Positions 20,000-44,026 are shown, counted from the stretch's first letter. The stretch is DNA of 64,000 bases from an uncultured Chromatiales bacterium (GCA_964448285.1 CAYUWG010000008.1:18645-82644); one strand, 5' to 3'. Notes: generated by a model from the letters alone, not told the origin. A program made the numbers and translations.

Positions 20000-20776
20000 A
20001 TGAACGGGCGCATCTCCCCCCAGGAATTTTCGAGCCAACTCGCAAAGCAATACGCTTACGAACGGTGGGCAAGTCCTACCCAAGCGGAACGAACGATTTT
20101 CATCCACAAATTCTTCCTCTGGGGAAATGAATTCGGAGACGATTGGATTACACAGCGACTGAACTCCTCGATGATCGGTAACGAGGTGAACTACACGCGC
20201 GCGGATTCGCAGCATAGCCATGATCCATTCTCCTTCAGAATAGAGATCTACGAAACGGCATCCGCGCAGATCGCACGGTCACGCTTGCTCGAACTTCTGA
20301 GCGAATTCACGGTCGGGCCGCTGAACCAACAGAAAGGATCAGAATCCGTCCACATCGCCTTTGCTACGAGGGATGGGCAGGTCGTCGTCTATGCATTTGC
20401 CAACATGGCGGTCAAACTTGCTCGGCACGCGCAAAGGGGAGAGAGCAATGTCAACATGCTCGTACCAGTCCAACGATTCACTTCAATCTTTGCAGAGAAA
20501 TCTCATAGAGCAGATAAAGTGAGACAACCGCAAATCGTTCAGTTTCAGACACCCATGCCAAGAATGAAACCTGGTATCGCGGTGCCGCTCGATATTCGCG
20601 TCATCGATCCGTTGAACAGGCCTGTCTGGTATCGCCTTACATCAACGAACGGCGAGGTGACGTCGCACGGAGAGCGATTGATGTACACACCGTTCACAAC
20701 GGGACGGCAATCGATAGCCCTCGTGGTAACGAACGCCGACGGGTTTACATCGCAGCGCGAATTACGTTTGGTCTGA
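20000..20776 (+). CDS. hypothetical protein
   Basis: 258-aa ORF starting 3 nt after the previous gene. No motif recognised. Confidence 0.4.
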   Translation: MNGRISPQEFSSQLAKQYAYERWASPTQAERTIFIHKFFLWGNEFGDDWITQRLNSSMIGNEVNYTRADSQHSHDPFSFRIEIYETASAQIARSRLLELLSEFTVGPLNQQKGSESVHIAFATRDGQVVVYAFANMAVKLARHAQRGESNVNMLVPVQRFTSIFAEKSHRADKVRQPQIVQFQTPMPRMKPGIAVPLDIRVIDPLNRPVWYRLTSTNGEVTSHGERLMYTPFTTGRQSIALVVTNADGFTSQRELRLV

Positions 20777-23700
20777 GATTTTCAGCCGAATGAAGAACTC
20801 CGTGAAATCGCCTTCTTCCGTCTCAAACCACAGATCGCCGCCGTGAAGTTGGACGATAATATCGTAGCTGATCGAGAGACCGAGACCGGTTCCTGAGCCT
20901 GTCGGCTTTGTCGTAAAGAAAGGCTTGAAAATCTGGTCACGATACTCTTTCGGAATCCCAGGTCCATTATCCCGGAATGAAATGAGAACCGCACCATCCT
21001 CGAGCCGGGTCGATACGCGTACTTGAGGTACGTAGGAATCCCGACGCTGTCGCGCTTTTTCGAGAACCGCATGAAATGCATTCGTCGCCAGATTGAGAAA
21101 GACGCGGCTGATGTCTTCCGGGACTAAGGTTATCCGGGGAATGTCCGGCTGAAACTCCTGGATGAGATCGATCTCCACCAGGCGCATCTGACTGCGAATG
21201 CTGTTGAGCGCAAGCGTGATGCTCTGCTCGACCAAGCGGTTGACGTCCTCGTACGAGGGTTCGCCTTTCTTCAAGCGTGAATGCTGGAGCATCGAACGAA
21301 TGATCGATGAAGCGCGACTTCCATGTTCGGTGATGATCTTGCTGTTGCCATGCAGGGTTTCGAGGAGAGGAGCCGTTCGTTCAAAGATGGATCGGTGCTC
21401 TCGAAGTTCACCTTCCAGATCCCTCAGCACTCCTTCATTGATGGATGCGAAGTTCGTCACAAAGTTCAGGGGATTCTGGATCTCGTGCGCGATCCCCGCT
21501 GTGAGAGCGCCGAGCGATGCGAGCTTTTCCTGCGTGATCATCTGTTGTTGGGTCGTGATGAGCTTTTTGTTGGTCGTCTGAAGTTCATCGTTCACTATTT
21601 CCAGTTCTTCTTTCTGACGGTTTATTTGCTGTGCCTGATGGTGGAGTTGCTCGGTACGCTCCTGGACACGCGCTTCAAGCTCCTCTCTGTGTCGTGAGAG
21701 TTGCAGCGTTCGGATTTTGACGATAACGAAAACAAGCAAGAGACCTGCGAACGTGTAAAGGAAGTACGCCCACCACGACTGCGTCCATGGCGCAAGGATC
21801 TGAATCGTGAATCGCGCTTCACTGCCTTCCCTTCCGAATGCATCCCTGCCGCGAACGCGGAACGTGTAGGTTCCCGGCTGAAGATTCGTGTATTCCTTAC
21901 TGGTTTCCGTCGTCCAGGGTGACCACTCGGATTCGAAACCTTCGAGCAGATACCGATAGCGCGTTCCTTCGGGCCTGAGAAAGCGCAATGCAGTGAACTC
22001 GAAGCGGACGGAGTTATAGCGATACGGAATGTGCATGACGCTGTCTCGTGTATCGTTCCCGTGAAATACGAGTGAGTCTTTCCCGATTCGAACGGAGCGG
22101 ATGAGGGTTGGAAAAAGCAACCGTTCCGATGATGGGATGTTCAGATCGTATTGCAGAATATCAGCGGCACGTCCGAACCAAACCGCTTTGTCGGCATCGC
22201 TGTAAATGGTGTAAACCAGACCCTTAGGAACCAATGCAAAAGGCTCGGCAACAGGAGTTACGGTCCAACCGGGGTTAAAGGAAGCAACAGCCGGCTGCGA
22301 GTGCGACCAGCAGTACATCCAGAGACGCTTTCGGTTGTCCTCCAGCATGGGAAATATATTTACGCGAATCGTATCCCTGTGGACGTGATCGATCATCGGC
22401 TCCGGAATGAATCGATTCTTCGTTTCATCGAAACGATAGAGTCCATCGTTTGTCGAAAAGATCGTGCCTTGCGAAGTGTGAAGAACGAATACCGATGACT
22501 CTTCATCGGGCAAGCCATTCCACGAATGCGACCTTGGAGCGGAGGACAAAGGTGAAGAACCGCTGAGGTTGAGAAGGATCGGTGGACCAAGCATTGAGCC
22601 AAGCCAGATTTTCCCGTCCTGCTCTTCCACGATCGTATTGATTGGGATACCTAGATTCAGAAAATCGCCTCGTTGCCAATGACGGTCTCGCAATTTGAGC
22701 GTCAGGAATCCTTCGTTCGTTCCGACATAGCAGGTAGCAGGGTCGCGCCGGGACTGAAGGATGGTATGGAGATTAATATCAGTCGCAGGGATAGTGGTCC
22801 ATTTCCCTTCATGCAACTGCTTGACCCCTCTGTTTGAAAGCACGAGGAGATGCTTTCCCGTTGAGAGGACATCCCAGACGCGGCCATGCAGTTCCGGTAT
22901 CGGCTCCCAACTCATTGTGAAATGCTGTGGTTGGTGACGTGCTAAAGCGGGACTATACTGATAAACGAACAGTCCTTCAGTTGTCCCCGCGTAGAGAAGG
23001 CCTTCATGCCGCGCAAGAGATGTGATGCTGCCATGAAGACCGATTTGTCTCGTGTGTAACGTAATTGGGGAGACGATCTCGACTAAAGCGATTCCATCAT
23101 AGGTCGTTGTCCAGAGTCTTTTATCCTGATCGAGAAACAGCTTTGTCGTTGCATCGGAACAGAGTCCGGTAGCGGTGTTGATATGGGTGACGAGGCGACC
23201 TTTCGCATCGATATGAACGATACCCCAGTGCGTCGTTCCAACTGCGATATCTCCATGAGGGAGCGCGACAGCATAGCGCGGATTCCCCCATCGCAAACGG
23301 ATGTTCACTTGTTCGGAAAGCGCTGTGAGATTATCCCCTTCTAAAATCTTCCAGGCATTTTTGATTTTCACGAGCAGTTTCGTGGAATGGTGGATGGGCA
23401 GCGGTGGCACTTCGAGCGTATGTTTGATATGCTGATCAACGAACGTACCGTTCTTCAATCTGAAGAGCGCGGGTTTCTTCTCGATCACCATCAGAGTCTG
23501 ATTGAAGACCGACAAATCATCGAACCCGAATGACGACCTCCAGGATTTGATTTCTTTGCCTGTCCATTGAAAAAGCGTCTTCGCGCTTAGGAAATAGACG
23601 GATGAACCGAGTACCGCGATATTCCCGACCTGTTCGAAATTCGTGAGCGAGTCCGGTATGGAAGGAAGGAGCGACTCGATGAAGATGCGCCCTGACGAAT

Positions 23701-24055
23701 CGATGCGCAACATGCCAAAGTCACCATACATCCCGACGTAGATAGTTCCAGCGCTATCCATCGCAAGGGAATAGACGGGAGTCTGGTTCGGCGCCGCGAT
23801 GAGCCGCCAGGTGACGCCATCGAACTCGAGCAAGCCGCTCGTATTACCGATATACATCACGCCTCTCCGATCCTGGAGTGCGCAGAAGTTTTGTGGTGTT
23901 TCTCCATAGTCTGTGGAGAGGAAATTCCGGATGAGTGGAATGCCGCGTTCCCTCGTTTCCTCATGTCTCTGCTGTCCCTGAGTTCTTTGCAGAGAGAAAA
24001 GCATGACCAAGCATACGAGAGTGAACAACGGCTGAATCGAAACGAGAGAGTGCAT
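20762..24055 (-). CDS. sensor histidine kinase with periplasmic two-component-regulator propeller / Y_Y_Y domains
   Basis: N-terminal signal/TM followed by long beta-propeller-like repeats. A Y_Y_Y-like region ([16 protein letters not shown]) and TM precede a coiled coil. H-box [16 protein letters not shown] is present. HATPase_c motifs ([20 protein letters not shown]) are present. No receiver domain. Confidence 0.8.
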
Positions 24056-27513: not shown

Positions 27514-28179
27514 ATGATTGGACAGATCGATGCGTTGACGCTCCGTGATCGCATCCCCCAGGAAGAATTCGATTACCAGACGCTTCTCCACGCTCTTCAG
27601 GAATATGCCCGGCCGCGAAACCGCATCACCACACTGCTGAGCGAAGGAAGTATTCTTCGTGTGAAGAAGGGCTTGTACGTTTTCGGTGAACGACTTCGCA
27701 GGCATCAGGTATCTCGTGAACTGTTGTCCAATCTCCTGTATGGCCCGTCGTACGTCTCCCGTGAATATGCTCTGTATTATCATGGATTGATACCGGAACA
27801 GGTGCCAACTCTCACTGCAATGACAACCGGCCGCGCCCGGAGTTTTCGAACACCTCTTGGCCTGTTTACCTACTCGACGCTTCCTTTGCCGGGTTATGCG
27901 GTCGGAGTGACCCTCGCCGTTGCCGATGAGAAAAGTTTTTTCATCGCCTCTCCGGAGAAAGCGCTTGCAGATCTGGTGTACACGACAGCCGGGCTCCAAT
28001 TGCGCTCGCGGTTGGACGTAGAACGATTTCTGTTCGAGGACCTTCGCATCACGTCCGATGAAATCCCGAATATGAATTCGCAGACGCTACGGGAAATCTC
28101 CCGATCGACAGTTTCAAAGCGGGTACGATATCTCGTCGATTCCATCGAGCGATATCTCGTCGGAGCGACTTATGCATGA
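27514..28179 (+). CDS. abiEi: AbiEi antitoxin-like transcriptional regulator (type IV TA)
   Basis: The N-terminal segment (TLRDRIPQEEFDYQTLLHALQEYARPRNRITTLLSEGSILRVKKGLYVF) is typical of the AbiEi_4 family. It overlaps the downstream abiEii by 8 nt. Confidence 0.65.
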   Translation: MIGQIDALTLRDRIPQEEFDYQTLLHALQEYARPRNRITTLLSEGSILRVKKGLYVFGERLRRHQVSRELLSNLLYGPSYVSREYALYYHGLIPEQVPTLTAMTTGRARSFRTPLGLFTYSTLPLPGYAVGVTLAVADEKSFFIASPEKALADLVYTTAGLQLRSRLDVERFLFEDLRITSDEIPNMNSQTLREISRSTVSKRVRYLVDSIERYLVGATYA

Positions 28180-29038
28180 AGCCGTTTTGACTATGCTTGG
28201 AAAGTATGACCTCAGTACGCGGGACTCCGCTATTCATGCGCTGAGGGAGGTACTTCAGGAAGTTGCTCTGCTGGGACTCTGGCGAGCGCGTTTCTTCGAA
28301 CACGCTGCGTTTTACGGTGGAACAGCCCTCCGTATTCTTCACGGTCATGAGAGATTTTCGGAAGACCTTGATTTTACACTCCTGCAACCCACGCCGGATT
28401 CTACTCTCTCCAACTACTTTTCCGCATTGACGTCTGAACTCCTGTCATTGGGTTTCGGCGTTACGGTACAAGCGAAAGAAAAAAGAAAGTGGTCAGCGAT
28501 ACAGTCCGCGTTCCTCAAAACCGACACCAGGTCGCATCTCCTTGCGCTATCAGCGCAGCAGAGAATCGTCGATACCGTTGCACCGAATCACGTTCTGAGA
28601 ATCAGGTTGGAAATCGATACCAACCCACCGGGTTATTTCAAAACGGAAACCCGCTTCCTCTTCCAGCCGATTCCTTTCTCCGTACGCAGTTGCAGTCTGC
28701 CCGATCTCTTTGCAGGAAAGATGCACGCCGTTCTTTGCCGTGAATGGAAAACCCGAGTCAAGGGGCGTGATTGGTACGACTTCGTTTGGTTCGCAGGCAA
28801 TCATCCTGATCTCCATTTGCGACATCTCGAAGAACGGATGAAGCAAAGCGGGCACTGGGAAATGAACAAGACGCTGACGGAATCTTCATTTCGCGAACGG
28901 CTTTCCACTCGCATTGAATCACTCAATATCGATGCAGCGCGATCCGAGGTCCTTCCTTTCATTCAGAATCCCGACGGTGTATCCATATGGTCGAAGGAGT
29001 TTTTCCATGCCGCAGCACGACGAATACACTGCGTATAA
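28172..29038 (+). CDS. abiEii: AbiEii/AbiGii family nucleotidyltransferase toxin
   Basis: GGTALRILHGHERFSEDLDF nucleotidyltransferase motif and a length of about 288 aa. Confidence 0.75.
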   Translation: MHEAVLTMLGKYDLSTRDSAIHALREVLQEVALLGLWRARFFEHAAFYGGTALRILHGHERFSEDLDFTLLQPTPDSTLSNYFSALTSELLSLGFGVTVQAKEKRKWSAIQSAFLKTDTRSHLLALSAQQRIVDTVAPNHVLRIRLEIDTNPPGYFKTETRFLFQPIPFSVRSCSLPDLFAGKMHAVLCREWKTRVKGRDWYDFVWFAGNHPDLHLRHLEERMKQSGHWEMNKTLTESSFRERLSTRIESLNIDAARSEVLPFIQNPDGVSIWSKEFFHAAARRIHCV

Positions 29039-30540: not shown

Positions 30541-30723
30541 GAAAGAAGATCTCCGTCCGTTGTTACCAGAACTTCGACAGAATAGACATGAATTCAAACA
30601 CCGAAATGCAACCGCGGACTTCTCCAACGGGCAGCTCAACTCTCGAGGTGTTAGATTGTTATCTCAAGTGCGAGCGAACGCACAAATCCGTAATCAGAAA
30701 TCCGTAATCCGTAATCCCCTCCC

Positions 30724-32394
30724 ATGTCAGACAATAAAATCATCTTCTCCATGATCGGCGTTGGCAAAGTCGTCCCGCCGAACCGATACATCCTCAAGGA
30801 CATCTACCTCTCGTTTTTCTACGGCGCGAAGATCGGCGTACTCGGTCTCAACGGCGCTGGGAAATCCACGCTGCTGAAGATCATCGCGGGGCTTGACCGC
30901 GACATCCTCGGCGAGATCACATCGGACAAAGGAATCACGTTCGGCTATCTGCCACAGGAGCCGGAGCTTGATCCAGGCAAGACCGTCCGCGAAGTGATCG
31001 AAGAGGGCGTGCAGGACGTCGTGAACGTCGTGAAGGAGTACGAAGCGGTGAACGCGGCCTTTGCAGAACCGGACGCGGACTTCGACGCACTGCTCGAGCG
31101 ACAAGCGAAACTGCAAGAACGGATCGACCATCTCGACGCATGGGATCTCGACAGCAAACTCGAAATGGCAGCCGATGCTTTGCGCTGCCCGTCGGGAGAA
31201 ACACCGGTGAATGTGCTTTCAGGCGGGGAGCGGCGTCGCGTCGCACTGTGCCGTCTGCTCTTGCAAAAGCCCGACGTGCTTCTCATAGACGAACCGACCA
31301 ACCATTTAGACGCGGAGTCCGTCGCGTGGTTAGAACAGCATCTTGCGAAGTACGAAGGCACCGTCATTGCCGTCACGCACGACCGCTACTTCCTCGACAA
31401 CGTCGCGGGATGGATTCTCGAACTCGACCGGGGCGAAAGGATTCCGTTCAAGGGCAACTACACTTCGTGGCTTGAACAGAAGCAGGAGCGCTTGCGCGTC
31501 GAAGAGAAGCAGGAGTCGAAACGGCAACGCATTCTCGCGCGCGAGTTGGAATGGGTGCGCATGAATCCCAAAGGCCGTCACGACAAGAGCAAAGCGCGCA
31601 TCGCGGCGTACGAAAAGCTTCTCACCGAAGAACAGGAGAAGCGCAACGAGGAGATGGAGATCTTCATTCCCGCAGGACCGCGACTCGGCGACGTCGTGAT
31701 CGAAGCGAAGGGCGTCTCGAAAGCGTTCGGGGACAGATTGCTGTTCGAGGGTTTGGACTTCTCGCTCCCACCCGGCGGCATCGTCGGCGTGATCGGTCCG
31801 AACGGCGCGGGTAAGACGACGCTCTTCCGCATGATCACGGGACAGGAACGTGCGGACGCGGGGACGTTCAAGATTGGCGAGACGGTGGCGCTCGGCTACA
31901 TCGACCAGAACAGACCGCTCGATGGGGAGAAGACGATCTATCAGGAAATCTCCGGCGGCGACGATCTCATTCGCGTGGGAAGCCGCGAGGTGAATGCGCG
32001 CAGCTACGTGGCGCGGTTCAACTTCAGCGGCAGCGACCAGCAGAAACAGGTGGGGCTGCTCTCCGGCGGCGAGCGCAACCGCGTCCATCTCGCGAAGATG
32101 TTGAAGGAGGGTCCGAACGTCCTCCTCCTCGACTAACCGACGAACGACCTCGACGTGAACACGCTCCGCGCGTTGGAAGAGGCGCTACTCAACTTCGCCG
32201 GATGCGCCGTGGTGATCTCGCACGACCGCTAGTTCCTCGACCGCATCGCGACGCACATACTCGCCTTCGAAGGCGACAGCCAGGTGCGCTGGTTCGACGG
32301 CAACTACGCGATGTATGAGAAAGACCGCAAGCAACGGTTGGGCATCGAAGCGGACAGGCCACACAGGATTAAGTACCGGGCGATGACGAGGTGA
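30724..32394 (+). pseudogene. ettA: ABC-F translational throttle EttA with two in-frame stop codons
   Basis: Two ABC cassettes are present (GLNGAGKST ... LSGGERRRVAL ... LLIDEPTNHLD; GPNGAGKTT ... [11 protein letters not shown]). The second Walker B reads LLLD-TAA-PTNDLD, with TAA at 32134-32136 where Glu is expected. HDR-TAG-FLDR has TAG at 32230-32232 where Trp is expected. The frame continues to the TGA at 32392-32394 with a canonical EttA C-terminus. Confidence 0.75.
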
Positions 32395-32536
32395 GAGGGA
32401 TAGAGTTGGCTCACTTTGAAATTATGCTGATAGCATTAACCCATCAGCATGAGTCGATAATGAAGACGAATTCCTTGAAATTATACGTTGCAATTCTCTT
32501 TAGCAGCGTGCATTTTTCCAATAAGGAGATGACCCA

Positions 32537-32743
32537 ATGAAATTCACAATAACCATATATCGCGATGAAGACGGCATGTTTATCGCCGAATGTCCTTCAA
32601 TTCCCGGTTGCATCAGCCAAGGAAGGACTGAGGAAGAGGCACAGTTGAACATTCAAGATGCCATCAAAGAAGCCCTTGAAGCTCGAGCTGAGTTGGGTAT
32701 GCCCCTTACGATTGCGACCAAACAAATCGATGTTGCAGTGTAG
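32537..32743 (+). CDS. hicB: HicB-family antitoxin
   Basis: MKFTITIYRDEDGMFIAECPSIPGCISQGRTEEEAQLNIQDAIKEALE (UPF0150/HicB fold). Its TAG stop overlaps the hicA ATG. Confidence 0.7.
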   Translation: MKFTITIYRDEDGMFIAECPSIPGCISQGRTEEEAQLNIQDAIKEALEARAELGMPLTIATKQIDVAV

Positions 32744-32971
32744 ATGCCGCCAGTTCCTCTTTTGCGCCCCTCGGAGGTCATCAAGATATTCGAGAAACTC
32801 GGATGGAGAGTAGTGCGCCAACGAGGCAGTCACATCATTCTCACCAAGACCGGACAGATTGCAACTCTGTCGGTTCCAAATCATGAACAGATCGCGCGTG
32901 GCACCCTACGCGGCTTGATCTCAAAAGCCGGATTGACCATCGAACAATTCCTCGAAGCATCTGGTCACTAA
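32744..32971 (+). CDS. hicA: HicA-family mRNA interferase toxin
   Basis: [26 protein letters not shown]....[23 protein letters not shown] is the canonical HicA/YcfA motif set. Confidence 0.75.
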
Positions 32972-33004
32972 CCTCTCGCCGTATTTACCCGCGCACCCGA
33001 AGCA

Positions 33005-33393
33005 ACGTGGCGCGGTTCAACTTCAGCGGGAGCGACCAGCAGAAACAGGTGGGGCTGCTCTCCGGCGGCGAGCGCAACCGCGTCCATCTCGCGAAGATGT
33101 TGAAGGAGGGTCCGAACGTCCTCCTCCTCGACTAACCGACGAACGACCTCGACGTGAACACGCTCCGCGCGTTGGAAGAGGCGCTACTCAACTTCGCCGG
33201 ATGCGCCGTGGTGATCTCGCACGACCGCTAGTTCCTCGACCGCATCGCGACGCACATACTCGCCTTCGAAGGCGACAGCCAGGTGCGCTGGTTCGACGGC
33301 AACTACGCGATGTACGAAAAGGACCGCAAGCAACGGTTGGGCATCGAAGCGGACCGGCCGCACAGGATTAAGTATCGGGCGATGACGAGGTGA
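33005..33393 (+). repeat. 389-bp perfect direct duplicate of the ettA 3' end (copy E2)
   Basis: Near-identical to 32006..32394. It carries the same TAA and TAG and ends at the same TGA. Confidence 0.9.
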
Positions 33394-33521
33394 TAAGTAT
33401 CTAACGGCTATGCGTTTCAGCGGCGCCGACGATCACCTACCGGCGGAGGTACCCCAGGCACCTGCGGCGTCCGCTGGAAAAGCTTGTTAGATTTTGCGGC
33501 ACACCTATCCTGTATTTGCCA

Positions 33522-34148
33522 TCAAAGCAACCCTACAAAGAAAGGGGTGTAGGAAAATGAAAAGACGGATCGACCTTCTCGCATATCCCATAGAAACTCC
33601 TTTAGCATGTCCGCCCACTCTGCCCAACTACGGTATGTTCCATGGTCCTGAATCCACTCACCAAGATGTGCCTCTTCGATCATCTGGACCGGTAGACCGG
33701 CATCGATAGAGGAGGGGTGCTCCAATAGTGGGACATCCATTACAATGTCCCCGACCTCCTCGGATACCGGGTGCAGATGACACCACAGCACCCGCGCCTG
33801 ATTGTTCAGATCGAATAGCGATGTCACGAGTGGCACGGCAGCCAAAACCGGGATGCTGAAGTGGTACCCTACATAGGTCGCTCTAAAGAGGGAGTGATTG
33901 AACTTAACCTGGATGTGCTCATCTCCTGTATCCAACACCTTGGGGCGTCGGGCGAAAATCGCGACGACCTTCAGAGTAATGCCATCACCACCCGCTACTC
34001 CGACGCGACTTCCCTCGCGACTGGACCAGTAGTAGAAGGGTAACGCACGCATACCCGCGCCACCAAGTGCCCAAACAGCTCTCGGGACGAGGAAGTACTC
34101 CACCGTCCGCTCGTTCATAAAGCCGATCCGTCTTCGTTGGCCCATCAC
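33522..34148 (-). CDS. hypothetical protein (4th gene of kinase operon)
   Basis: 208-aa ORF in GC-rich DNA, co-oriented with the upstream genes. No motif recognised. The start is uncertain (possibly the ATG 30 nt downstream). Confidence 0.4.
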   Translation of the reverse strand: MMGQRRRIGFMNERTVEYFLVPRAVWALGGAGMRALPFYYWSSREGSRVGVAGGDGITLKVVAIFARRPKVLDTGDEHIQVKFNHSLFRATYVGYHFSIPVLAAVPLVTSLFDLNNQARVLWCHLHPVSEEVGDIVMDVPLLEHPSSIDAGLPVQMIEEAHLGEWIQDHGTYRSWAEWADMLKEFLWDMREGRSVFSFSYTPFFVGLL

Positions 34149-34254
34149 GCCTACATAAATCTAACGCTCAGCATCAGAGGCGGCGCCCACCGCCGTCCGC
34201 TGCATGCTGTTGTTAGCCGGAAGATGCCGGTCAGTGTTATCGGGAATCTTTGGT

Positions 34255-35544
34255 TCACTGCAGGCTGGTCCAACGCCGTCGTAGTACCGGCCCTCGTTGC
34301 TTGTCCAGCATGGCGAGCGCCGCGCGGTTCACGTCGAGAGAGTCGGTGAAGTCCCGGTTGGCGCCGAGCACGCCATTCGAGCCGAGAGTGTGGAGCAGGT
34401 CCTCGGCGTCGTTGAGCGTCTGCTCTTGGGCCTGCCACGCCTCGTCGTACTCTGCCGCATTCAGTGCTTGCGCCTGGCCGCGAAGAGCGTGCAAGTAGTG
34501 GCGGAAGGCCGCCTGCTCAGAGAAGCGTACGGAGGACGGCTGCACTCCGCTGAACAACGGGTCAACATAGCCGCCGTCGAATTCAGACGGTGGCTTCATG
34601 AGATCGAGCACCCCCTGCTCGTAGGCCACGTCGAGGAACGGGATCTTGTATTCCGAGAGGGCCCACGGGCAGTAGTACCACGTCGCTCGGCGCCGGATCT
34701 CCTCTTCATAATCCTTGTTGAACTTCTCGGGCGGGAACGACCGCACGTTCATCCACGTCCCGGAGCAGATGGCATTCGCTCCTGCGACGTGCGAGACGAG
34801 CATCTGATGATTGCAATAGCCGAGGATCACCTGCGCGCCCGCAAGGCGCAGCCCAGCCGTCAAATCAAGGACGTGCGCGAGCCAGATGGCGTCCTGAACG
34901 AGGTAGTCGCCGTTCGGATGTTCGCAGACGATGTAATACCCGTCTGCCCTCCAGCGGGTGACCGCTTCCAGTAGCGCGGTGACCTGCTCGCGGTTTCGGG
35001 CAGAGTCAGCCCCCAGAGCGAGCGTCGAGTACAGCGGTTTGGAATCGCCAGCCAGGTCGCGCGCGGTCGTGAGAAACGACTCATGATGAGCAAGCCAGGG
35101 ATCATCAACGGGATCGGCGAGCATCCCGGGCAGGATGATGGCCTCCGTGCCAAGGTCTTCGTTCAGCTTGACGATCTTGCGAACAAGAGACTCCATCTCG
35201 GGTCCTTTGAAGAAGGATCCCGATGCGAAGTCGGCCGGCCAGAACTCGTGGGAGCATAGTCGCTCATGATCGGCGTGCGGGACATAGAACTGAGGGTCAA
35301 GCAGCGCCTTCCCGCCTTCAACCTCGGCCACGTCCTCAGCCAAGCGCCGGAGTTGCTTGTCGTTCAGGTCGCGAGGGCTCAAAACAACTGTACCTCCACC
35401 CCATTCCGTGAGAAGGTGGCGGCAGTGGTCCATCATCCCGAATCCGAACTGAAGGTGAAGCTCCATCAATGTCCTCCTCCCACGAAGGCGCTTCGGCAGG
35501 GTCCACCGCCGCATGAACATGCCCGCGTGAGCGTACAGCTCCAT
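34255..35544 (-). CDS. hypothetical protein (429 aa), translationally coupled to the kinase gene
   Basis: Its ATG at 35544 lies 1 nt after the kinase TGA (TGAcATG). The gene is GC-rich. No motif recognised. Confidence 0.45.
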   Translation of the reverse strand: MELYAHAGMFMRRWTLPKRLRGRRTLMELHLQFGFGMMDHCRHLLTEWGGGTVVLSPRDLNDKQLRRLAEDVAEVEGGKALLDPQFYVPHADHERLCSHEFWPADFASGSFFKGPEMESLVRKIVKLNEDLGTEAIILPGMLADPVDDPWLAHHESFLTTARDLAGDSKPLYSTLALGADSARNREQVTALLEAVTRWRADGYYIVCEHPNGDYLVQDAIWLAHVLDLTAGLRLAGAQVILGYCNHQMLVSHVAGANAICSGTWMNVRSFPPEKFNKDYEEEIRRRATWYYCPWALSEYKIPFLDVAYEQGVLDLMKPPSEFDGGYVDPLFSGVQPSSVRFSEQAAFRHYLHALRGQAQALNAAEYDEAWQAQEQTLNDAEDLLHTLGSNGVLGANRDFTDSLDVNRAALAMLDKQRGPVLRRRWTSLQ

Positions 35545-35545
35545 G

Positions 35546-36409
35546 TCATTGGACTCCCTCCCGGTCGCAGAGGTCCTTGATCCAATCGTAAGCCTCGCGT
35601 GCCGTCTGGCACCTATGGACGGGGTTCGGTTGTGCCAAGGTTGCCACGAGGTCCGCGAAGTCGCGCGAGATGGGGGCTACTAAGCGCGGAAGTTGATTCT
35701 TGGCAACACGAGCCATGATCTCGAAACCGTCCCGAGCGCCGTCGCGGTGAGGATTGCGGCCGGTAGCGGCCTCATAGAGCGTCACGCCCAGCGCGAAGAG
35801 ATCGGCGCGGGCGTCGATCTCGGGCTTGTCATTGCGGCATTGCTCGGCGGGTGCGTAGCCGATTGTTCCCCAGCCTGCGGGAGCGGCGGTCGCCGTAATA
35901 GAGTCGAGGTCGAGGTGGCGTGCGAAACCGAAGTCGATGAGCCAGAATCCGCCTGCTGGATCGACGATGATGTTCGCGGGCTTCACGTCTCGATGAACGA
36001 TGTGGACGGCTTCCGCTGCGACCAAGGTCTCCGAGACGTGCAGCGCCAACCGTAGGAGTTCGGGACAGGCGAGCGGAGCAACACGGATGCGGCTGCTCAG
36101 GACCTCTCCCGGAATGCGCTGCTCACGGAACCAGACGATCGTTCCTGTATTCCCGGTGAGTTGCCCGTGCTGGAAGATGCGCGGCATCCGAGCAGCATGG
36201 ACCCTGGTAGCTGCCTCCAGCTCCCTCACCGTTCTTGCGGGATCCGTCCCCGGGTGCATGAGCTTGACGACAACCCCGCCGTCAGTCGCGTGCTGCGCAG
36301 CGAAGACCTGCTTCTGACCTCCCGCTGCAATCGCCTGGAGGTCGGTGAGGTCCGGGAACTGGTGTGCGAGCCAAACCGGATCTACCTGGGAGGGGATCGG
36401 CATAATCAT
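35546..36409 (-). CDS. Hanks-type serine/threonine protein kinase (kinase domain only)
   Basis: VVVKLMHP (VAIK-like Lys), catalytic loop HRDVKPANIIV, DFG (LIDFGFARHL) and APE-like GTIGYAPAEQ. There are no additional domains. Its start overlaps the upstream gene's stop as ATGA. Confidence 0.75.
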   Translation of the reverse strand: MIMPIPSQVDPVWLAHQFPDLTDLQAIAAGGQKQVFAAQHATDGGVVVKLMHPGTDPARTVRELEAATRVHAARMPRIFQHGQLTGNTGTIVWFREQRIPGEVLSSRIRVAPLACPELLRLALHVSETLVAAEAVHIVHRDVKPANIIVDPAGGFWLIDFGFARHLDLDSITATAAPAGWGTIGYAPAEQCRNDKPEIDARADLFALGVTLYEAATGRNPHRDGARDGFEIMARVAKNQLPRLVAPISRDFADLVATLAQPNPVHRCQTAREAYDWIKDLCDREGVQ

Positions 36410-37185
36410 CGGTTGCTGTGGTCCTTGGAGGCACGCCATGCAAGGTCATTGACAACCCACGAGGCGTACGAGCGTGGCAAGCGCGCGGTGGAAGCGCCCC
36501 ATTCCCTGATTCCATCTTGCCCGGGAGATAGTACTCCGATCCCGAGTCGTTGCGCGTCTCGGACCTGCTCCTCGGAAACGCGGGGCACGAGGACGTAGGA
36601 CTTCGATGCGAACCAGGTGTTCAGCCGTGCTTGGTTCAGCACGTCTGCCCACTTCCCGATTTTCGCCTCAACAGCGATAATCTTGGTCGCCGCGAAGGTG
36701 CGTTCGAAGGCGCACGGGAACCAGGCACGTCCGGCGGGTCGAACGAGCCCGGCACCGTGCAACCGTTCAATCGAGTATCGGGCGAAACGGGATCCGAAGC
36801 AGTCCTCAAGTTCTGAGTGGGCGGCTCTACGACGCTGGAAGACGTATTGCATGAGCCGCAGGTCGTCCGGTACGAGATCCATGCGCGATTCGTCCCAGTT
36901 GGCGGTGCGGGCGTCGCGCCACACCACGATGACGAGATCAGGGAACCCGGACTCTAGGCCGGGCTCGCGGAGCACCGTCACACGGCTATCCGGGGCATGC
37001 ACAAGCGGCATTGCGAAGATGAAACCATCCACGAGTTCCTGCTCTGGACCCCGCAAGGTGCGACGGAAGACGATGCCCTTCGGCGCCGAGTCGCGGTCAA
37101 CGATCGTTGGTCTCATGGTGGAGTGCACGTTGGTGATTCCCTCCCGTTCAATCACGCGTACTCGGTCCCTTCGTCCGGCCAACAA
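36406..37185 (-). CDS. hypothetical protein with possible PD-(D/E)xK-like signature (first gene of kinase operon)
   Basis: GFPDLVIVVW ... KIIAVEAKIGKW resembles the D / ExK strands of the restriction-endonuclease fold, with an unusually long spacer. The annotated start uses TTG; the first ATG is 23 codons downstream. Confidence 0.35.
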   Translation of the reverse strand: MLAGRRDRVRVIEREGITNVHSTMRPTIVDRDSAPKGIVFRRTLRGPEQELVDGFIFAMPLVHAPDSRVTVLREPGLESGFPDLVIVVWRDARTANWDESRMDLVPDDLRLMQYVFQRRRAAHSELEDCFGSRFARYSIERLHGAGLVRPAGRAWFPCAFERTFAATKIIAVEAKIGKWADVLNQARLNTWFASKSYVLVPRVSEEQVRDAQRLGIGVLSPGQDGIREWGASTARLPRSYASWVVNDLAWRASKDHSNR

Positions 37186-37600
37186 TAATTAGGCTGATCC
37201 GCATAAACCGCCGGTTTCTCATTTTCTTTCCGCATAAGACTCCATAGAATTATTTGTTCTTCGTCGCATCATGCCTCGACCGTTCGATGTATGTAATGTC
37301 GGGTTTGCAATTCATCATACATTTGCATCATCAGCTTGGGTCGTTTCGCTTGGGTCGTCATGTTGCTATTGTTGTCGCAAGATTACTTGGCACAACGATA
37401 GGAAATCAAAGCCTCAAAGTCAAGAAATGCGGGAAAATACTTTCTACTCCTTCATCTCGCACATACTTGCCTTCGAAGGAGACAGTCAGGTGCGCTGGTT
37501 CGACGGCAACTACGCGATGTACGAAAAGGACCGCAAGCAACGGTTGGGCATCGAAGCGGACAGGTCGCATCGGATCAAGCACAAGGCGATGATTGATAAC
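37181..37600 (+). repeat. composite repeat R1: 74-bp R-left element + IntI N-terminal remnant (30 codons, minus strand) + attI-like spacer with direct repeats + ettA 3' copy
   Basis: The minus strand reads [30 protein letters not shown]-stop and matches the start of the IntI-like ORF at 41880. The spacer carries TTGTCGCAAgattacTTGGCACAA. Then comes ettA-like coding ([42 protein letters not shown]) including GTTGGGC. Confidence 0.8.
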
Positions 37601-37622
37601 CGGGTTCGTTGTGTTGTACTGG

Positions 37623-38732
37623 TTAAACGCCATGGTCTTTCTCCGGCTCTGCGTATGTATCCGGTTGTTTCGGTAGTGCTGCGATCGCGGCGGCGATTTC
37701 CCGGAGATCGTTAACCAACGAACGAACGACAACATCTTTTTCCTCTCCAACTGGGACCTCCAACGAGATGGCAAAATCGTGATCGCTGGCTACGGTAAGG
37801 ATGCCTTTTTTAGTTACCCACGATTCAATCAGCGGGCGCACTTCCTGTCCCCGGCCGAAATCATCATCAGCGAAGACAAGCCAGAGAGGTGTTGTTCCAT
37901 GTGTCTTCCAGAGACCAAAGTGAATCCCGAACCATGCGCCTGCGCTACCTGAGCTTTGAGTCCCCATCACTCTCACATAACGCCCAATTCGCTCCCACGA
38001 CGCTTGCGGACGAAGTCCGCTGATGAGGAGAACCTTCTCGGTTACTCCAAGATCTGTTGTTGCCTGAATGATTGCGCCAAGTTGAAGAACAAAAGCTGAT
38101 GTGCGTTGATCTGTGATCTCGACTCGCGAAACTGGAGCGAAGGCATCTGAGTCTGCCGTGTCACAGAGAGCACGTAATTGGATGAGGTCTCCAATGGTGG
38201 TTGGAGCGCTGATGCACTCGTACTCCAATACGGACAGGACATTCTCCCAAGATGTGAGCGCCAGAATAGGACCAAGTTGTGTATCTGCTGAACGTGCTAT
38301 AGCGACAGCAGCAACACGCTCGGTTGCGGGGATTCCCTCGACTTCAAGTCTCCTGCGCAATTCCCGCCACAGAGTCTGTTCACGTGCGGCCGGACCGACG
38401 ACGAGAAGAACCGTTGGCTGCTGGTACGTTGCAAGTTGCTTCAGGTACGAAACCGGTTGCTTGTCTGTCAGCCCCGCCCAGAACTTGTTCTCCACGAAAA
38501 CGCGTGGTTGATTGTCGGAGAATCCCCACAGATCCGGACGAATCGTTCCTTCGGTTTGCTGAGTCTTGAATCGCAACGACGGGAGTTCTGGGGCAACGCC
38601 TCGAAGAAGCTTCATTATACCTCCTCGAGCGGCTTCGCTCGATTCGAGAATGTATGCAAGCGCATCGGTCGCTACGTCTTCATTCACATTGGAAAACCGC
38701 TTCTGGATGATATGGCTGAGTACAGTCTGCAT
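37623..38732 (-). CDS. hypothetical protein with PD-(D/E)xK nuclease motif
   Basis: [23 protein letters not shown] gives D, then 12 aa, then ExK with hydrophobic strands, the classic restriction-endonuclease-fold core. Confidence 0.4.
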
Positions 38733-38741
38733 CTAATCGAG

Positions 38742-38939
38742 TTAATCATGCTCCTCAACGCCATACGCGTTTGCCAAACTCTTTTGGGACAACTCCAACC
38801 AGGCATTCTGTTCTTCGTCAGACTGCTCAGGAAAAACGATCACGAGAAGCCGAGAGTGTGGTTCTATTTTGAAGGGTTCATCCAACCGTATCTGCTCACC
38901 ATCGAAATGGGCCGCTAATGCTACTGTTTTCATTGACAT
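38742..38939 (-). CDS. small antitoxin-like protein (65 aa)
   Basis: Short acidic-C-terminal protein (EQSDEEQNAWLELSQKSLANAYGVEE) lying 9 nt upstream of the PD-(D/E)xK gene. Its size and composition resemble small type II antitoxins. The family is not identified. Confidence 0.3.
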   Translation of the reverse strand: MSMKTVALAAHFDGEQIRLDEPFKIEPHSRLLVIVFPEQSDEEQNAWLELSQKSLANAYGVEEHD

Positions 38940-39003
38940 TTTCTCCTTAGGTGATAGTATCTATCTGTCTAATGAATTCCAGACCAACTCGCTGGCATAA
39001 TAG

Positions 39004-39216
39004 TCAGGCTGCAACCTGAATGTAGGACGAGTACGCCGATGGTTCAGGGGCGTCGTAACCCTCCATTCGCAAGCCTTCGAGATGAAATTCGATGGCTTCC
39101 TGAATATTTCGTTCGACTTCCTCTTTCGTTCTACCGGTAGAGCCACAACCCGGCACGTCCGGAGAAAATGCAGAGTAACCCGTACGTGTCTTTTCAACGA
39201 CGATAAGAAATTTTTT
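39004..39216 (-). CDS. HicB-like antitoxin (orphan)
   Basis: MKKFLIVVEKTRTGYSAFSPDVPGCGSTGRTKEEVERNIQEAIEFHLEGL is a UPF0150/HicB fold. No HicA partner is adjacent. Confidence 0.6.
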   Translation of the reverse strand, partial: KKFLIVVEKTRTGYSAFSPDVPGCGSTGRTKEEVERNIQEAIEFHLEGLRMEGYDAPEPSAYSSYIQVAA

Positions 39217-39278
39217 CATGGTTTCAATCCAGCTTGTTTGAGGATGTTCTGAGAACACGTCAGACCATTGTGATACGT

Positions 39279-39872
39279 TCAAGCTGCTTCAGCGTGCAGT
39301 CTCAAACCAAGAGCCCCAATCACCTTGAGGATGGTATCGAAATCAGGAGTACGTTCACCGGACAATGCCTTATAGAGACTTTCGCGTGAAAGACCAGCGT
39401 CACGCGCAACCTGTGCCATGCCACGTGCACGGGCAATATCTCCAAGCGCCTTTGCGATAAATGCGGCATCACCATTGGCTTCTTCCAGACATGCTTCTAA
39501 GTAAGCCGCCATTTCCTCAGGCGTTCGGAGATGTTCGGCGACATCATATCGAGTGGTTTTGGTTTTTCTCATCATGGGCTCCAACAAGTTTCGCGCGAGG
39601 CTACGAGCTGTCTTGATGTCGGTGGCTTGGGTACTTTTATCACCGCCTGCCAGCAGAATTACCATCTCGCGTCCGCGCTTTGTGAAATAAACCCGATAAC
39701 CGGGACCGTAATCGATCCGCAACTCGGAGACGCCATCACCAACTGGTTTGACATCTCCAGCATTTCCTGCCGCCAAGCGCTCAACTCTGGATAGGACACG
39801 CGCTCGTGCCTGAATGTCGCTCAGTCCATCGAGCCACTGCACGAAATTCTCTGTTTTGCGAATCTCAATCAC
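39279..39872 (-). CDS. in-frame fusion of RelE/Gp49-like addiction-module killer and HTH antidote
   Basis: Residues 1-100 (MIEIRKTENFVQWLDGL...GPGYRVYFTKRGREMVILLAGGDKSTQ) match the putative addiction-module killer family. Residues 105-197 (MMRKTKTTRYDVAEHLRTPEEMAAYLEA...GLSRESLYKAL) match the cognate antidote family. The junction is cccATGATGAga. Confidence 0.6.
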   Translation of the reverse strand: MIEIRKTENFVQWLDGLSDIQARARVLSRVERLAAGNAGDVKPVGDGVSELRIDYGPGYRVYFTKRGREMVILLAGGDKSTQATDIKTARSLARNLLEPMMRKTKTTRYDVAEHLRTPEEMAAYLEACLEEANGDAAFIAKALGDIARARGMAQVARDAGLSRESLYKALSGERTPDFDTILKVIGALGLRLHAEAA

Positions 39873-39937
39873 GGAAGGAATGTAGCCTAACGGCTACACA
39901 TTGTCAAATGATTATTCTACGCTCAGAGACTACTTGG

Positions 39938-40051
39938 GTCGCCCGCTGGCTCGACGGCAACTACTCCTATGTACGAGAAAGACCGTAAGCAGCGCTTAGG
40001 CATCGAACCGGACGGCCGCTCAGGATTAAGAATCGGGCGATGACGAAGTGA
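39938..40051 (+). repeat. diverged ettA 3'-end copy E3
   Basis: Encodes RWLDGNYSYVRERP?KQRLGIEPDGRSGLRIGR-stop; ends at TGA 40049-40051. It is the most diverged copy. Confidence 0.6.
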
Positions 40052-40247
40052 CAAGCTTCTAACTGCCCTGCGTGTAAGCCGCGCCGGTATGATATTTTGA
40101 TTGAATGCGAGATCTTAGTTGAGTCGACTTAACACGCGGGTTAGGCGTCTCATCTCGCCATAAGATTTTCATGCCAAACCCGCGATCGTCGGCTATTCGA
40201 AGTCTTAGCGCCTACGTCCCGTATGTAAGGTCTAATCACTGCCGATG

Positions 40248-41351
40248 TCATCGTTTTTCACTTCCTGAATGTATTTCCAATAGACTCTTTCTATGAAGAA
40301 TACCAAAGCGTTGCCAAGCATATATATAGTCTCCAACAACTTCTATTCTAGCAATCTCATCAACTTGAATACCTGAGTCCGATTCTGTTCCAACTGGAAT
40401 CCAGCTTTTGCCGCTGTTTGTTGAAACAAATACTCCAATATTGGTGCCACAGAATATGTAAATTCCGAATGTCGCAATCGAGCTTACAAACGCAACCCTG
40501 TCGGATAATCCTATAGAACATCTAACCCAACTCTCTCCATTGTCGGAAGATATGTATAATCCATCATTGGTTCCAGCAAAAAGCACGTTTCCCAATGCAG
40601 CCAGTGAATTAATCATCCGGTTATATAGTCCGGAATTAACTCCAATCCAGTTTTTTCCACCATCCCTGGATAAGAATATCCCATTGTCCGCTCCGACAAA
40701 TATAAGATTTTCGCACCTAAGGACAGTGTTGACTCTACTGCTATACTCCTTCAATGTGCCAAATCCTTCGTCACCAGAAAAGAATACAACGCGTTTCTCG
40801 TCCCATCTTTTAATATCATCTTTTACCGCCATATACAATCTTCCTTCATATGTGACAGCATATATTTCATTATTGAATACATATATGTGCCGTATACCGC
40901 TTTTGGAGAGCACGCTATCTGGAGATATATTGGATGGAGTAGTTCGTTCTCGCTCTGAGGACATATTTACGCTGATCGAATAACTGATAGCTTGCCACCA
41001 GTTCCATCCCCTGTCTAAAGAGATAAACAGACCCTTCTGTGTTCCGCAAATCAAAATCGAATCTATCGTGATAAACCGTGTAATACCTACATTGGTAGGT
41101 AATTTTCCGCCGTATTTCCATTCTGAAAGAAAACCTGGTTGGCTTGGAATTGAGGGTGCGCCATTTTCATTCGCAGCGAATATTCCATGAGAATGAGCAA
41201 CCACCAACAACCTACCGGATTGCCGAATATCAACGATAGGCCCACCCCGTGCCATAGTCAACTGCCATTGCGAAATTGCTTTCGAATATGGTGCAGTGAA
41301 TACGATTGCGGCAATTATAACTGCTGGTTTTACTGCTAATCTACAATACAT
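40248..41351 (-). CDS. secreted BNR-repeat beta-propeller protein
   Basis: Signal peptide, then BNR motifs [32 protein letters not shown]. The gene is AT-rich (about 40 % GC) and its start overlaps the intI remnant's stop. Confidence 0.55.
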
Positions 41352-41880
41352 AGTGCGGTAAATTCTGATTTATTAATTCAATCGGGCTTCGTGCTGCCGA
41401 ATGCCCCCTGTTAAGTACATGGGTGTAAATCATCGTGGTTTTAATATCGCGGTGGCCTAAAAGCTCTTGGACAGTCCGAATGTCATAACCGCTTTCGAGC
41501 AAGTGTGTCGCGAACGAATGCCGGAACGTGTGACAGGTTACCCTCTTCGTCATGCCTGCTTTCATTGCGGCGATCCGCGCGCGAATGAGTTCGCACAGAT
41601 CACCGACCGCTAGTCCGATAACGTTGCGATACAAAAAGAGTAGAGCAGAGAGAGCTTGATTCTGTGTCGAAGCGCTTACTTTTTCCTCAACAGCAAGATG
41701 TGTCAGAAAAGCATTGATCTCAGGTTCCGACATCTCTTGCGGATGGCGCACATCATTGAAATGAACGTAGCGTTTCACCAAAAAGCAGTACACCTCCTCC
41801 GTACGATGGCTGTAATGTCGAACCTGCAATGCTTCATGCATTTGCATCATCAGCTTTGGTCGCTTCGCTTGGGTCGTCAT
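41341..41880 (-). pseudogene. intI: integron-type tyrosine recombinase (IntI-like) with a large internal deletion
   Basis: The N-terminal 100 aa ([15 protein letters not shown]...[31 protein letters not shown]) match the IntI core-binding domain. The ORF then joins directly to box II / C-terminus [43 protein letters not shown]. The catalytic Arg/Lys/His patch region is missing. Total length is 179 aa versus about 320 expected. Confidence 0.7.
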
Positions 41881-42085
41881 ATTGCTATTGTTGTCGCAAG
41901 ATTACTTGGCGCAACGATAGGGAATCAAAGAGTCAATGTCAAGAAATACCCGAAAAAACTTTCTTACTCACTTCATCTCGCACTTTCTCGCCTTCGAAGG
42001 CGACAGTCAGGTGCGCTGGTTCATCGGCAACTACGCGATGTATGAGAAAGACCGCAAGCAGCGTTTAGGCATCGAAGCGGACCGT
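41881..42085 (+). promoter_or_regulatory. attI-like region of R2: direct repeats TTGTCGCAA-6 nt-TTGGCGCAA, then ettA 3' arm to the GTT core
   Basis: It lies immediately upstream of, and divergent from, the IntI-like start. Two 9-bp direct repeats sit about 20 bp from the ATG. The ettA-like arm ([35 protein letters not shown]) ends shortly after GTTTAGG. Copies of the same layout occur in R1, R3 and R4. Confidence 0.5.
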
Positions 42086-42122
42086 CGGGTTCGCCCTGCT
42101 TTAAGTCGGCACGGCGCGGTCG

Positions 42123-42742
42123 CTATTCACGGGGCCACTTCCGGAGCGCTGCTTCAAAGCAGACATTGAGGAACTGCTCCACGATATCGATCACTGCAAC
42201 GACGAGCTTTGAATCAGCGAGTAGGGCGTCCACGACAACTGGACCCAAGGCTTTCCGCCGAATGAACGACTGGACCGCTCCTTTACCAGCGAAGTCAGCG
42301 AGTTGACCGCCGTTGTGAACAAGGCAGTTACGAACCTCAACAACACCCCGGACATCTTCGAGCAACTTTGACGGAAGGGCCAGGTCCATCCGGGCGACCT
42401 TCTGAGCATAGACAAGGAAGCGATCGAGCCACGAACCCCGCAGCTCGCGGAGGGACAGCTGTAGGTTCTCGGCATCACGAAGGCTCTGCGCGAAGTCTCT
42501 GAGATCTCGCTCAAGGAGACCAACTGTGACGACAATCACCGAGCTGTAGAGAATGCTGGGAAACGGCTCCTCGTAGAGGTAGGAATCCTCGTTCCCGAAG
42601 GCATCGTGCTTCCCAACCAAGCGCGTCGCTGATTCCGCGAGGAACTCCTCGACCGTGGTCAGATAGGCGCGAAGCTCATCAACGTGGATCAAGGCATCAA
42701 CGGAGCAGCCGAAGAACTGAAGACCGGGTCCGATGCTAGCCA
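42123..42742 (-). CDS. Abi_2 (AbiD/AbiF)-like HEPN-domain protein
   Basis: Rx4H motif EVRNCLVHNGG near the C-terminus in a predicted helical protein. The likely start is MASIGPGLQ at 42742. Confidence 0.4.
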
Positions 42743-43503
42743 TGTCCTCTCTTGTGTCGCCTAACGTTGTGCCGCTCAGCCGCGAGCGGCGGCCCATTGC
42801 TTCCGCACTCGCCCGGCGCCCGCCCGCCGCTCGTCTGCTGCAGCGGCGTGTTATGCTTCCTCTCGGCTTTCTCACCAGCTCTCTCGACGATCTTTAGGAT
42901 ATCGCTGGCGACAACGATTCTTTCGAACGCCGACAGAAAGTCCATGTCGACATCCCGGTGCGAACAGGGATTCTTGTAGTAGCCGAATGCGCCAGCGACG
43001 TATTGACACAGAGCCTCCCTTTCGGCCTTTGGAAGCGCCGGGTCGGTCAAGGGCCCGTTCTCAGGGTGGAAGGCCCTGCGGATTAGAGTCACGCCAATTT
43101 CGTCGGCACTGGACTTGGTCCACTTCCTGATCCCAGTCTCTACCGCCTTAAAGGCCTTGAGGACGGCACTTTCGTAATCGCCCGAATTCAACATGTGAAG
43201 GGAAACCTTGGCTATTCGAGGATGGATGTACATCTCCGGTACGAGTACGTAATCCCGAACAACGCTCCTAAACTCGCGCTCAAGGAACCTGAACCCGACC
43301 TTCGTTGGGTAAAAGGTTTCGTCGCCTTCGTCATCGTACCCACGTTGGTATTGACGTATATCTATGTGAGTCTCTGGACTAGCTTTGTACTTGACGCGCG
43401 AAAAGCGAACCGGCCGATATCCCCCGGCGTTCGCCTCGGCAATGACGTGCTGATACTCGATCTTTGCTTCGACTGCGCTCTTGTCCTTTGTCTTCCTCTT
43501 CAT
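42736..43503 (-). CDS. TIGR02391/Hypoth_Ymh-like HEPN-related protein
   Basis: The C-terminal 130 aa show AFKAVETGIRK ... LIRRAF ... YVAGAFGYYKNPCSHRD ... FLSAFERIVVASDILKIV. This matches the conserved FxAVE...RNPxAH-type blocks of that family. The likely start is ATG 43503 (MKRKTKDK). Confidence 0.45.
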   Translation of the reverse strand: MKRKTKDKSAVEAKIEYQHVIAEANAGGYRPVRFSRVKYKASPETHIDIRQYQRGYDDEGDETFYPTKVGFRFLEREFRSVVRDYVLVPEMYIHPRIAKVSLHMLNSGDYESAVLKAFKAVETGIRKWTKSSADEIGVTLIRRAFHPENGPLTDPALPKAEREALCQYVAGAFGYYKNPCSHRDVDMDFLSAFERIVVASDILKIVERAGEKAERKHNTPLQQTSGGRAPGECGSNGPPLAAERHNVRRHKRGHG

Positions 43504-43528
43504 CGCCCATTCTCTCCGCGGTAGGCCC

Positions 43529-43602
43529 AACAATAATTAGGCTGATCCGCATAAACCGCCGGTTTCTCGTTTTCTGTCCGCATAAGACTCCATAGAATTA
43601 TT
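43529..43602 (+). repeat. solo copy of 74-bp R-left element
   Basis: aacAATAATTaggctgatCCGCATAAaccgccggtttctcgttttctgtCCGCATAAgactccatagAATTATT has a 7-bp terminal inverted repeat and an internal direct repeat. It abuts the start of the Ymh-like gene. Confidence 0.7.
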
Positions 43603-44006: not shown

Positions 44007-44026
44007 GGTTGCTGCACGCTAACAAT

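Follow-up and report, generated by a model that had tools for sequence, protein, structure and literature searches.

Two in-frame stop codons in an ettA gene of an uncultured Chromatiales bacterium lie in a block shared with a relic copy in an array of ettA 3' ends

The ettA gene described here lies on the plus strand of a 64,000-nt stretch of DNA from an uncultured Chromatiales bacterium (GCA_964448285.1 CAYUWG010000008.1:18645-82644), which is referred to throughout as the window and in which positions are counted from the first letter. The frame of the gene runs for 556 codons plus a TGA and is interrupted by exactly two internal in-frame stop codons, which stand in place of the catalytic glutamate of the second nucleotide-binding domain (NBD2) and of a conserved tryptophan. 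Both stops fall in a 284-nt block that is identical in a second, partial copy of the gene, and the two copies belong to an array of ettA 3' ends. We hypothesize that ettA is here a very young pseudogene, its damaged block shared with the relic in the first islet of the array through gene conversion, a reading on which our confidence is evenly poised. The features on which the argument turns are these:

30724-32394, plus strand: ettA, copy c1, full length with two in-frame stops (family NF008775; alignment to Escherichia coli EttA)
32032-32315, plus strand: the 284-nt block, which holds A464P and both stops (difference list, unique deviations)
32134-32136, plus strand: TAA for the NBD2 Walker B catalytic Glu (GAA to TAA), codon 471 (translation, alignment)
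32230-32232, plus strand: TAG for the conserved Trp after the H-loop (TGG to TAG, altered base 32231), codon 503 (translation, alignment)
32261-32276, no strand assigned: palindrome TCGCCTTCGAAGGCGA, putative recombination core, codons LAFEGD; degenerate copy at 37467 (sequence scan)
32998-33393, plus strand: ettA' relic, copy c2, codons ~427-556, with TAA at 33133 and TAG at 33229 (blast scan, difference list)

The conceptual full-length product scores 945 bits on the equivalog model NF008775 (cut-off 599) and 947 bits on TIGR03719 (cut-off 807), and it aligns end to end with E. coli EttA (755 bits, residues 6-554). Codon 471 corresponds to the Glu of LLLDEPTNDLD in the E. coli protein (PDB 3J5S/4FIN) and codon 503 to the Trp of SHDRWFLDR; translation and alignment thus bear out the initial annotation as to the two stops, the residues hit, the single-base nature of the changes and a frame that is otherwise perfect to the canonical EttA C terminus. 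The gene shares with E. coli EttA (YjjK), an ABC-F translational throttle, the architecture of two NBDs and a linker, but two stops interrupt its frame, one replacing the Walker B Glu of NBD2 and the other the Trp that follows the H-loop, and it differs in addition by L188I, G239R and A464P. NBD1 and the ABC_tran_Xtn linker are detected, whereas the second NBD lacks its Walker B Glu, so that a family match over the full length goes together with one incomplete NBD and an interrupted frame. An open reading frame (ORF) finder closes the gene at 32136 to give a product of 470 aa, which at 782 bits falls under the TIGR03719 cut-off, and the NCBI product called for the gene is a 461-aa truncation (P0099).

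The relic c2 is 97.7% identical to 31999-32394, from which it is spaced by 999 nt and separated by hicB and hicA; true homology between the two copies begins at 32006. From 32032 to 32315, matching 33031-33314, the copies are the same at every position, and the earlier observation that the duplicate carries both stops holds, the context of each being identical. Seven differences lie outside this stretch, one at its left border (C at 32031 in c1, G at 33030 in c2) and six within 32316-32376. Zero differences in the central 284 nt against seven in the 105 flanking nt would arise from an even spread with a chance of ~1e-4, which argues that the central block has been homogenized, either in the cell or by the assembler. 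All seven differences are synonymous, where ~28% would be expected without constraint, and the tails therefore appear to have evolved as ends of working ettA genes; alternative tails of this kind are what would be expected if incoming elements had each supplied a replacement ettA tail. Both stops lie upstream of the palindrome, the TAG by 29 nt and the TAA by 125 nt, and so would belong to the host-side part of ettA, outside the exchanged tail.

Comparison with 116 full-length EttA homologues at columns at least 95% conserved gave five residues unique to the window EttA: L188I in the NBD1 Walker B motif, G239R, A464P and the stops at Glu471 and Trp503. Three of these fall among the 95 codons of the block and two among the 461 codons elsewhere (Fisher p=0.037), and this concentration of aberrant codons suggests that the block sequence derives from a relic free of selection. 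Outside the block, L188I and G239R are only a weak sign that the resident gene is under relaxed constraint. The remainder of the gene is nearly perfect, from which it follows that any inactivation of ettA would be recent. No intact allele of this lineage was found among 5.8 billion proteins, the best matches being 88% identical over the full length, 87% over the last 132 aa and 93% over the 94-aa block. Two proteins that scored above the relatives of the query (P0001 and P0002, of 751 and 643 aa) were set aside as internally duplicated misassemblies, neither being a close relative. We also considered whether long displaced 3' fragments of ettA are widespread, as C-terminal EttA ORFs of 134-230 aa on long contigs might indicate, and rejected the idea, since the two cases checked were single genes split by frameshifts in error-prone assemblies. 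Public collections hold many C-terminal EttA fragments from frameshift-ridden long-read assemblies (L007 and L008 among them), and calls of a broken ettA are common artefacts elsewhere.

The initial annotation had treated the downstream copy as a 389-bp duplicate of the broken gene. The stops are indeed copied, but a simple copy of a broken gene does not describe the fragment, since it is a member of a seven-copy array of attachment-site repeats. Searches of the whole window with ettA (tblastn and blastn), on which the copy count is based, gave seven ettA 3' copies including the gene itself (c1-c7), all on the plus strand and bounding six small islets. The homology of c3, c5 and c6 to ettA begins at CGCACATACTCGCCTTCGAAGG, a stretch that includes the 16-bp palindrome, which is perfect in ettA and repeated at 33260, 41988 and 44309. 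Downstream of ettA the array, with its integrase remnants and cargo, is arranged as follows:

32537-32971, plus strand: cargo of islet 1, hicB (32537-32743) and hicA (32744-32971) (Pfam; same module in the contig L006, described below)
33394-37273, minus strand: cargo of islet 2, ORFs of 208, 429 and 259 aa and a PD-T4-6-like Ser/Thr kinase (35546-36439) (profile matches)
37274-37456, minus strand: integrase 5'-end remnant and upstream arm, before c3 (87% identity to 41793-42082)
37457-37592, plus strand: ettA tail c3, codons 510-554, 91% amino acid identity (tblastn/blastn)
37623-39872, minus strand: cargo of islet 3, a 369-aa ORF, a 65-aa ORF, a HicB-like ORF and a fused Gp49/HigB-like and HigA-like ORF (profile matches)
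About 39944-40051, plus strand: ettA tail c4, degenerate, with an indel (tblastn/blastn)
41341-41880, minus strand: tyrosine integrase of integron-integrase type with an internal deletion (Pfam, TIGR02249)
41954-42085, plus strand: ettA tail c5, immediately after the upstream arm of the integrase (41881-41978) (tblastn/blastn)
42123-43533, minus strand: cargo of islet 5, ORFs of 250 aa and 265 aa (Hypoth_Ymh) with weak HEPN-type matches (profile matches)
44114-44388, plus strand: second remnant of integrase 5' end and arm (44114-44299), then ettA tail c6 (44300-44388; 44275-44388 in the blast scan)
45154-45277, plus strand: ettA tail c7, with a different left arm (tblastn/blastn)
46084-46197, plus strand: another stretch of the integrase 5' end and arm, not followed by an ettA tail (78% over 114 nt)

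Each of c3, c5 and c6 is preceded by one common 180-nt sequence. At c5 this sequence comprises the initial 88 nt of a tyrosine integrase gene (179 aa, opposite strand) and the region upstream of them; in all, four or more copies of this integrase 5' end occur in the array. The remnant retains Phage_int_SAM_4 and the C-terminal third of Phage_integrase. Its best family is TIGR02249, integron integrase (214 bits against a cut-off of 265), the XerC and XerD models scoring below 95 bits, and the internal deletion spans the region of the integron-specific extra domain. A crossover at the same site can be seen in a related species, in which two contigs (L001 and L002) show no mismatch over 11,637 nt and then split at an A/G inside CTCGCCTTCGA[A/G]GG. 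Since they diverge within the palindrome, the palindrome is a breakpoint in this second species also. The proteins encoded there (P0003 and P0004), which at 88% identity are among the closest intact EttAs, are identical through HILAFEGDS. The contigs differ from 11638 on, and the genes after ettA are not the same, one contig having an AhpC-like gene and the other a gene for a 1,769-aa surface protein. With direct repeats in one orientation, an integrase remnant adjoining a tail copy and a crossover site that recurs in another genome, the region from 32395 to ~46200 can be read as decayed integrative islets stacked behind the 3' end of ettA; the position of the integrase remnants suggests that such an enzyme had a role in building it.

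Within this array c2 is atypical, for it extends 255 nt upstream of the core and is preceded by hicA, with no integrase arm. The same arrangement occurs in a different sample (SRR26868045), where in the 923-nt Logan contig L006 the order is integrase arm, core, tail, hicB and hicA, followed by the same junction and the same ettA' fragment. The contig carries the c2-specific G at the equivalent of 33030, its strain differs from that of the window by ~1.3% in hicAB, and the hicAB-ettA' junction holds a different array position in that sample. From the shared junction and the shared G we infer that the long relic is part of the hicAB islet and predates the split of the strains; the relic is older than its present near-identity with the gene. 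The contig ends 34 nt short of the first stop position and so bears on the junction only, not on the stops. Within it (568-795, equivalent to window 32744-32971) hicA carries a nonsense change of its own, CAA to TAA at Gln26, and hicB is intact.

Our working hypothesis is that in this genome, which is Ignavibacteria/Bacteroidota-like, small islands carrying integron-type tyrosine integrase genes inserted repeatedly at the 16-bp LAFEGD palindrome of ettA. Each insertion would have supplied a replacement 3' tail and displaced the previous one downstream, which would leave seven copies and ~13 kb of decayed cargo. The first islet contains an unusually long ettA relic (codons ~427-556), free of selection, and the damage most likely arose in the repeat pair, or spread through it, when the two direct repeats, 1 kb apart, exchanged sequence by RecA-type gene conversion, probably from relic to gene. 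The resident gene would then stop at codon 470, and its product would be without the NBD2 catalytic Glu, the D-loop, the H-loop and the C-terminal strands. On what is known of ABC ATPases, loss of the catalytic Glu, the D-loop, the H-loop His and the last strands should leave an unstable and inactive protein, and the 470-aa product is expected to be non-functional. The initial annotation had seen significance in the loss of exactly the residue whose E-to-Q change makes EttA a dominant-negative inhibitor of translation. A stop at Glu471 is not an E-to-Q change, however: with it NBD2 loses its terminal strands as well as the D-loop and H-loop, so that loss of function rather than an ATP-locked trap is to be expected, and the dominant-negative idea finds no support. 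The half-ABC-F protein also proposed there is very improbable for a similar reason, since truncation takes these two loops together with part of the NBD2 core.

Several observations weigh against a resident pseudogene formed in this way. No read and no independent assembly was found over the stops, so that they may be present in the relic only and not in the resident copy. Two or more unique deviations occur in 15 of the 116 homologues, which makes the excess outside the block (two) a weak one. Stop-creating changes make up 2.8% of single substitutions in the block, and two nonsense changes among about three would be improbable under neutral decay (roughly 0.002), ascertainment being the only explanation we can offer. 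The origin of the long relic c2 has no explanation in the hotspot model. Lastly, a search with the integrase remnant found no intact element and no full-length integrase, only distant integron integrases of 35-83% identity.

The closest competitor, which we regard as possible though clearly the less probable, is that a short-k de Bruijn assembler merged the two 284-nt stretches, popped the single-nucleotide polymorphism (SNP) bubbles and threaded one edge twice, in which case only one copy, most plausibly the relic c2, would carry the stops and the resident ettA would be intact. The differences between the copies survive only within ~26 nt of the left edge of the repeat and in a dense SNP chain reaching its right edge, as k-mers anchored in the flanks would keep them, and both the clustering of aberrant codons in the block (expected if its sequence is that of the relic) and the near-perfect state of the rest of ettA agree with such a collapse. 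Logan contigs of the same strain, assembled at k=31, break around the locus, and the 470- or 461-aa product occurs in none. Against this, every bubble must have been resolved toward the relic variant, L188I and G239R outside the block hint that constraint was already relaxed, and the protein collection holds no intact allele or block of the lineage; and if the platform gave long reads, or the assembler used a large k, the copies would have been kept apart. Exact look-ups of the 470- and 461-aa proteins, of a 34-aa fragment of the block, of HicA and of the 208- and 429-aa neighbours were all empty, and scanning GTDB genomes, JGI metagenomes and viral contigs for the exact DNA, with the mutated base set to N, gave no match. 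The choice between a recent pseudogene and an assembly problem, as originally posed, is thus still the right one, with the qualification that the assembly problem is plausible as collapse of the 284-nt repeat and not as random miscalls. Upstream of the gene, Logan contigs of two runs break off within a short CCGTAAT-type repeat (30686-30716), at 30714 and 30716 and 8-10 nt short of the first ettA base, which suggests copy-number variation or a strain branch point there.

Selection for loss of EttA seems improbable. In such a scenario the nonsense changes would have arisen in the resident gene to inactivate the protein, for instance the Trp503 stop first, giving a harmful partial protein, and the Glu471 stop second, with a later copy to the relic. 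Two nonsense changes with little other damage do exceed the neutral expectation given above, and both lie in NBD2, but a single stop would suffice, the toxicity of a 502-aa product is hypothetical, and the clustering of odd codons within the repeated block suggests that they came from the relic.

An error of base calling or polishing, random or motif-dependent and repeated in both copies through their common context, is very unlikely. When restored, each of the two sites has GAACC on one of its strands, with TCGA-S before it, and broken ettA genes are common in error-prone long-read assemblies; yet GAACC, with 147 sites for an expected 137, is not depleted, and the Walker B motif of NBD1 has the GACGAACCGAC context too and is intact, so that a motif-dependent error and restriction avoidance at TCGA-S-GAACC are both rejected. 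ORFs of 700-1,965 aa are uninterrupted, no other window gene outside the array is broken, and Logan assemblies from three runs match 4.6-12.5 kb of unique DNA adjoining ettA at 99.8-100%, so that a random consensus error is also unlikely. One further in-frame stop, at 7654-7656 between ORFs of 1,965 and 693 aa, was considered and is a true terminator, because the next ORF begins with a signal peptide.

Functional recoding is the least credible alternative: a suppressor tRNA, a reassignment or a programmed event would yield full-length EttA or a dominant-negative throttle resembling E471Q, or the 470-aa product would itself act as a half ABC-F. The otherwise perfect frame is in its favour, as is the fact that Gln is often inserted in near-cognate readthrough of UAA, but the two stops are different and would have to stand for two different residues, Glu and Trp; they also occur in the c2 fragment, which is unable to encode a functional protein, and truncation costs NBD2 part of its core along with the D-loop and H-loop. 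The 36 well-supported genes of the window end in TGA (21), TAA (8) or TAG (7), the latter two, at 15 of the 36 ends, including those of the adjacent hicA and hicB. No suppressor tRNA was found within the window, its sole tRNA being an ordinary tRNA-Gln(UUG). The genome is therefore not recoded, as had been concluded before.

Arrays of islands in tandem at one attachment site are familiar from tRNA and tmRNA genes, their classic targets, and protein-coding targets appear in Islander/TIGER-type surveys. The window array resembles them in its co-oriented repeats of the target 3' end, in an integrase by a displaced copy and in a replacement 3' end that keeps the ORF; what sets it apart is a target in the coding 3' end of ettA, together with integron-type integrase remnants, the decay of every element and an internal copy (c2) that extends 255 nt beyond the core on its upstream side. 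A second likeness is to chromosomal integrons (IntI, attI and attC cassettes, often with toxin-antitoxin cargo), since the integrase is nearest to TIGR02249 and the modules are small and toxin-antitoxin- or defence-like. Here, however, the integrase 5' end is repeated rather than single, the cargo is mostly in the wrong orientation and the repeat unit is the ettA tail. A general inverted-repeat scan of 32300-46500, with no dedicated attC model, found no recurring attC-like inverted repeats, and with the repeated integrase end and the mixed cargo orientation this leaves a genuine integron with attC cassettes unsupported. For the shared block itself the human CYP21A1P and CYP21A2 pair is a precedent, in which pseudogene-to-gene conversion passes on inactivating mutations. 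The likeness lies in a nearby non-functional copy that shares an identical tract with nonsense changes while the flanks differ; in the window, conversion and its direction are suggested by the sequence pattern, and an assembly collapse would look alike.

No ettA tail lay beside the related integrase genes at 160 loci, with one exception in which ettA is nearby in another arrangement. In that exception, a Planctomycetia metagenome-assembled genome (L068, 4173-6285), an integron-type integrase gene begins ~200 nt past the ettA end on the same strand. The arm sequence had no exact match in viral contigs. A genomic island named with ettA as its flank is mentioned in bioRxiv 10.64898/2026.09.08.750204.

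The cargo of the decayed islets, spread over ~13 kb, includes higBA-like, hicAB, kinase and HEPN-like genes, and a BNR-repeat protein gene also lies between tail copies. The hicAB pair is supported by adjacent matches to HicB_lk_antitox PF15919 (3e-8) and HicA_toxin PF07927 (4e-18). The kinase at 35546-36439 (minus strand) matches the PD-T4-6 defence family (1e-40), its neighbours of 208, 429 and 259 aa (33522-37185) have no match in Pfam or PADLOC, and the four genes may form an undescribed defence module. At 39279-39872 (minus strand) a single 197-aa ORF fuses a Gp49/HigB-like toxin domain to a HigA-like antidote domain (dnstrm_HI1420 and HTH), domains that are as a rule encoded by two separate genes. 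Just upstream of the neighbour of ettA, a gene for an AbiEii toxin of 288 aa overlaps the 221-aa ORF that precedes it (27514-29038, plus strand), and the two are likely to be an AbiE-type pair. The variable region is flanked by two paralogous hybrid sensor kinases (Reg_prop/Y_Y_Y/HisKA/HATPase) of 1,097 and 1,115 aa, at 20762-24055 and 47248-50595, both on the minus strand.

For annotation, this ettA is best recorded as a disrupted gene and possible pseudogene, with the repeat flagged as one in which the consensus may not resolve the two copies; its stops speak neither for recoding nor for a toxin-like form of EttA. The surroundings indicate that the highly conserved stretch of ettA encoding LAFEGD has attachment-site function in at least two related species, and serial insertions there appear to build a compact store of toxin-antitoxin and defence-like genes. 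It is tempting to go further and to see a lineage of IntI-like tyrosine recombinases taken over to insert such islets at the ettA palindrome, with the ettA tail as the cassette boundary of an integron-like stack and a relic able to silence the throttle by gene conversion, although we consider this extended view doubtful. If gene conversion did carry the damaged block into the resident gene, ettA would be a case in which the relic of a mobile element inactivates the very host gene that the element targets.

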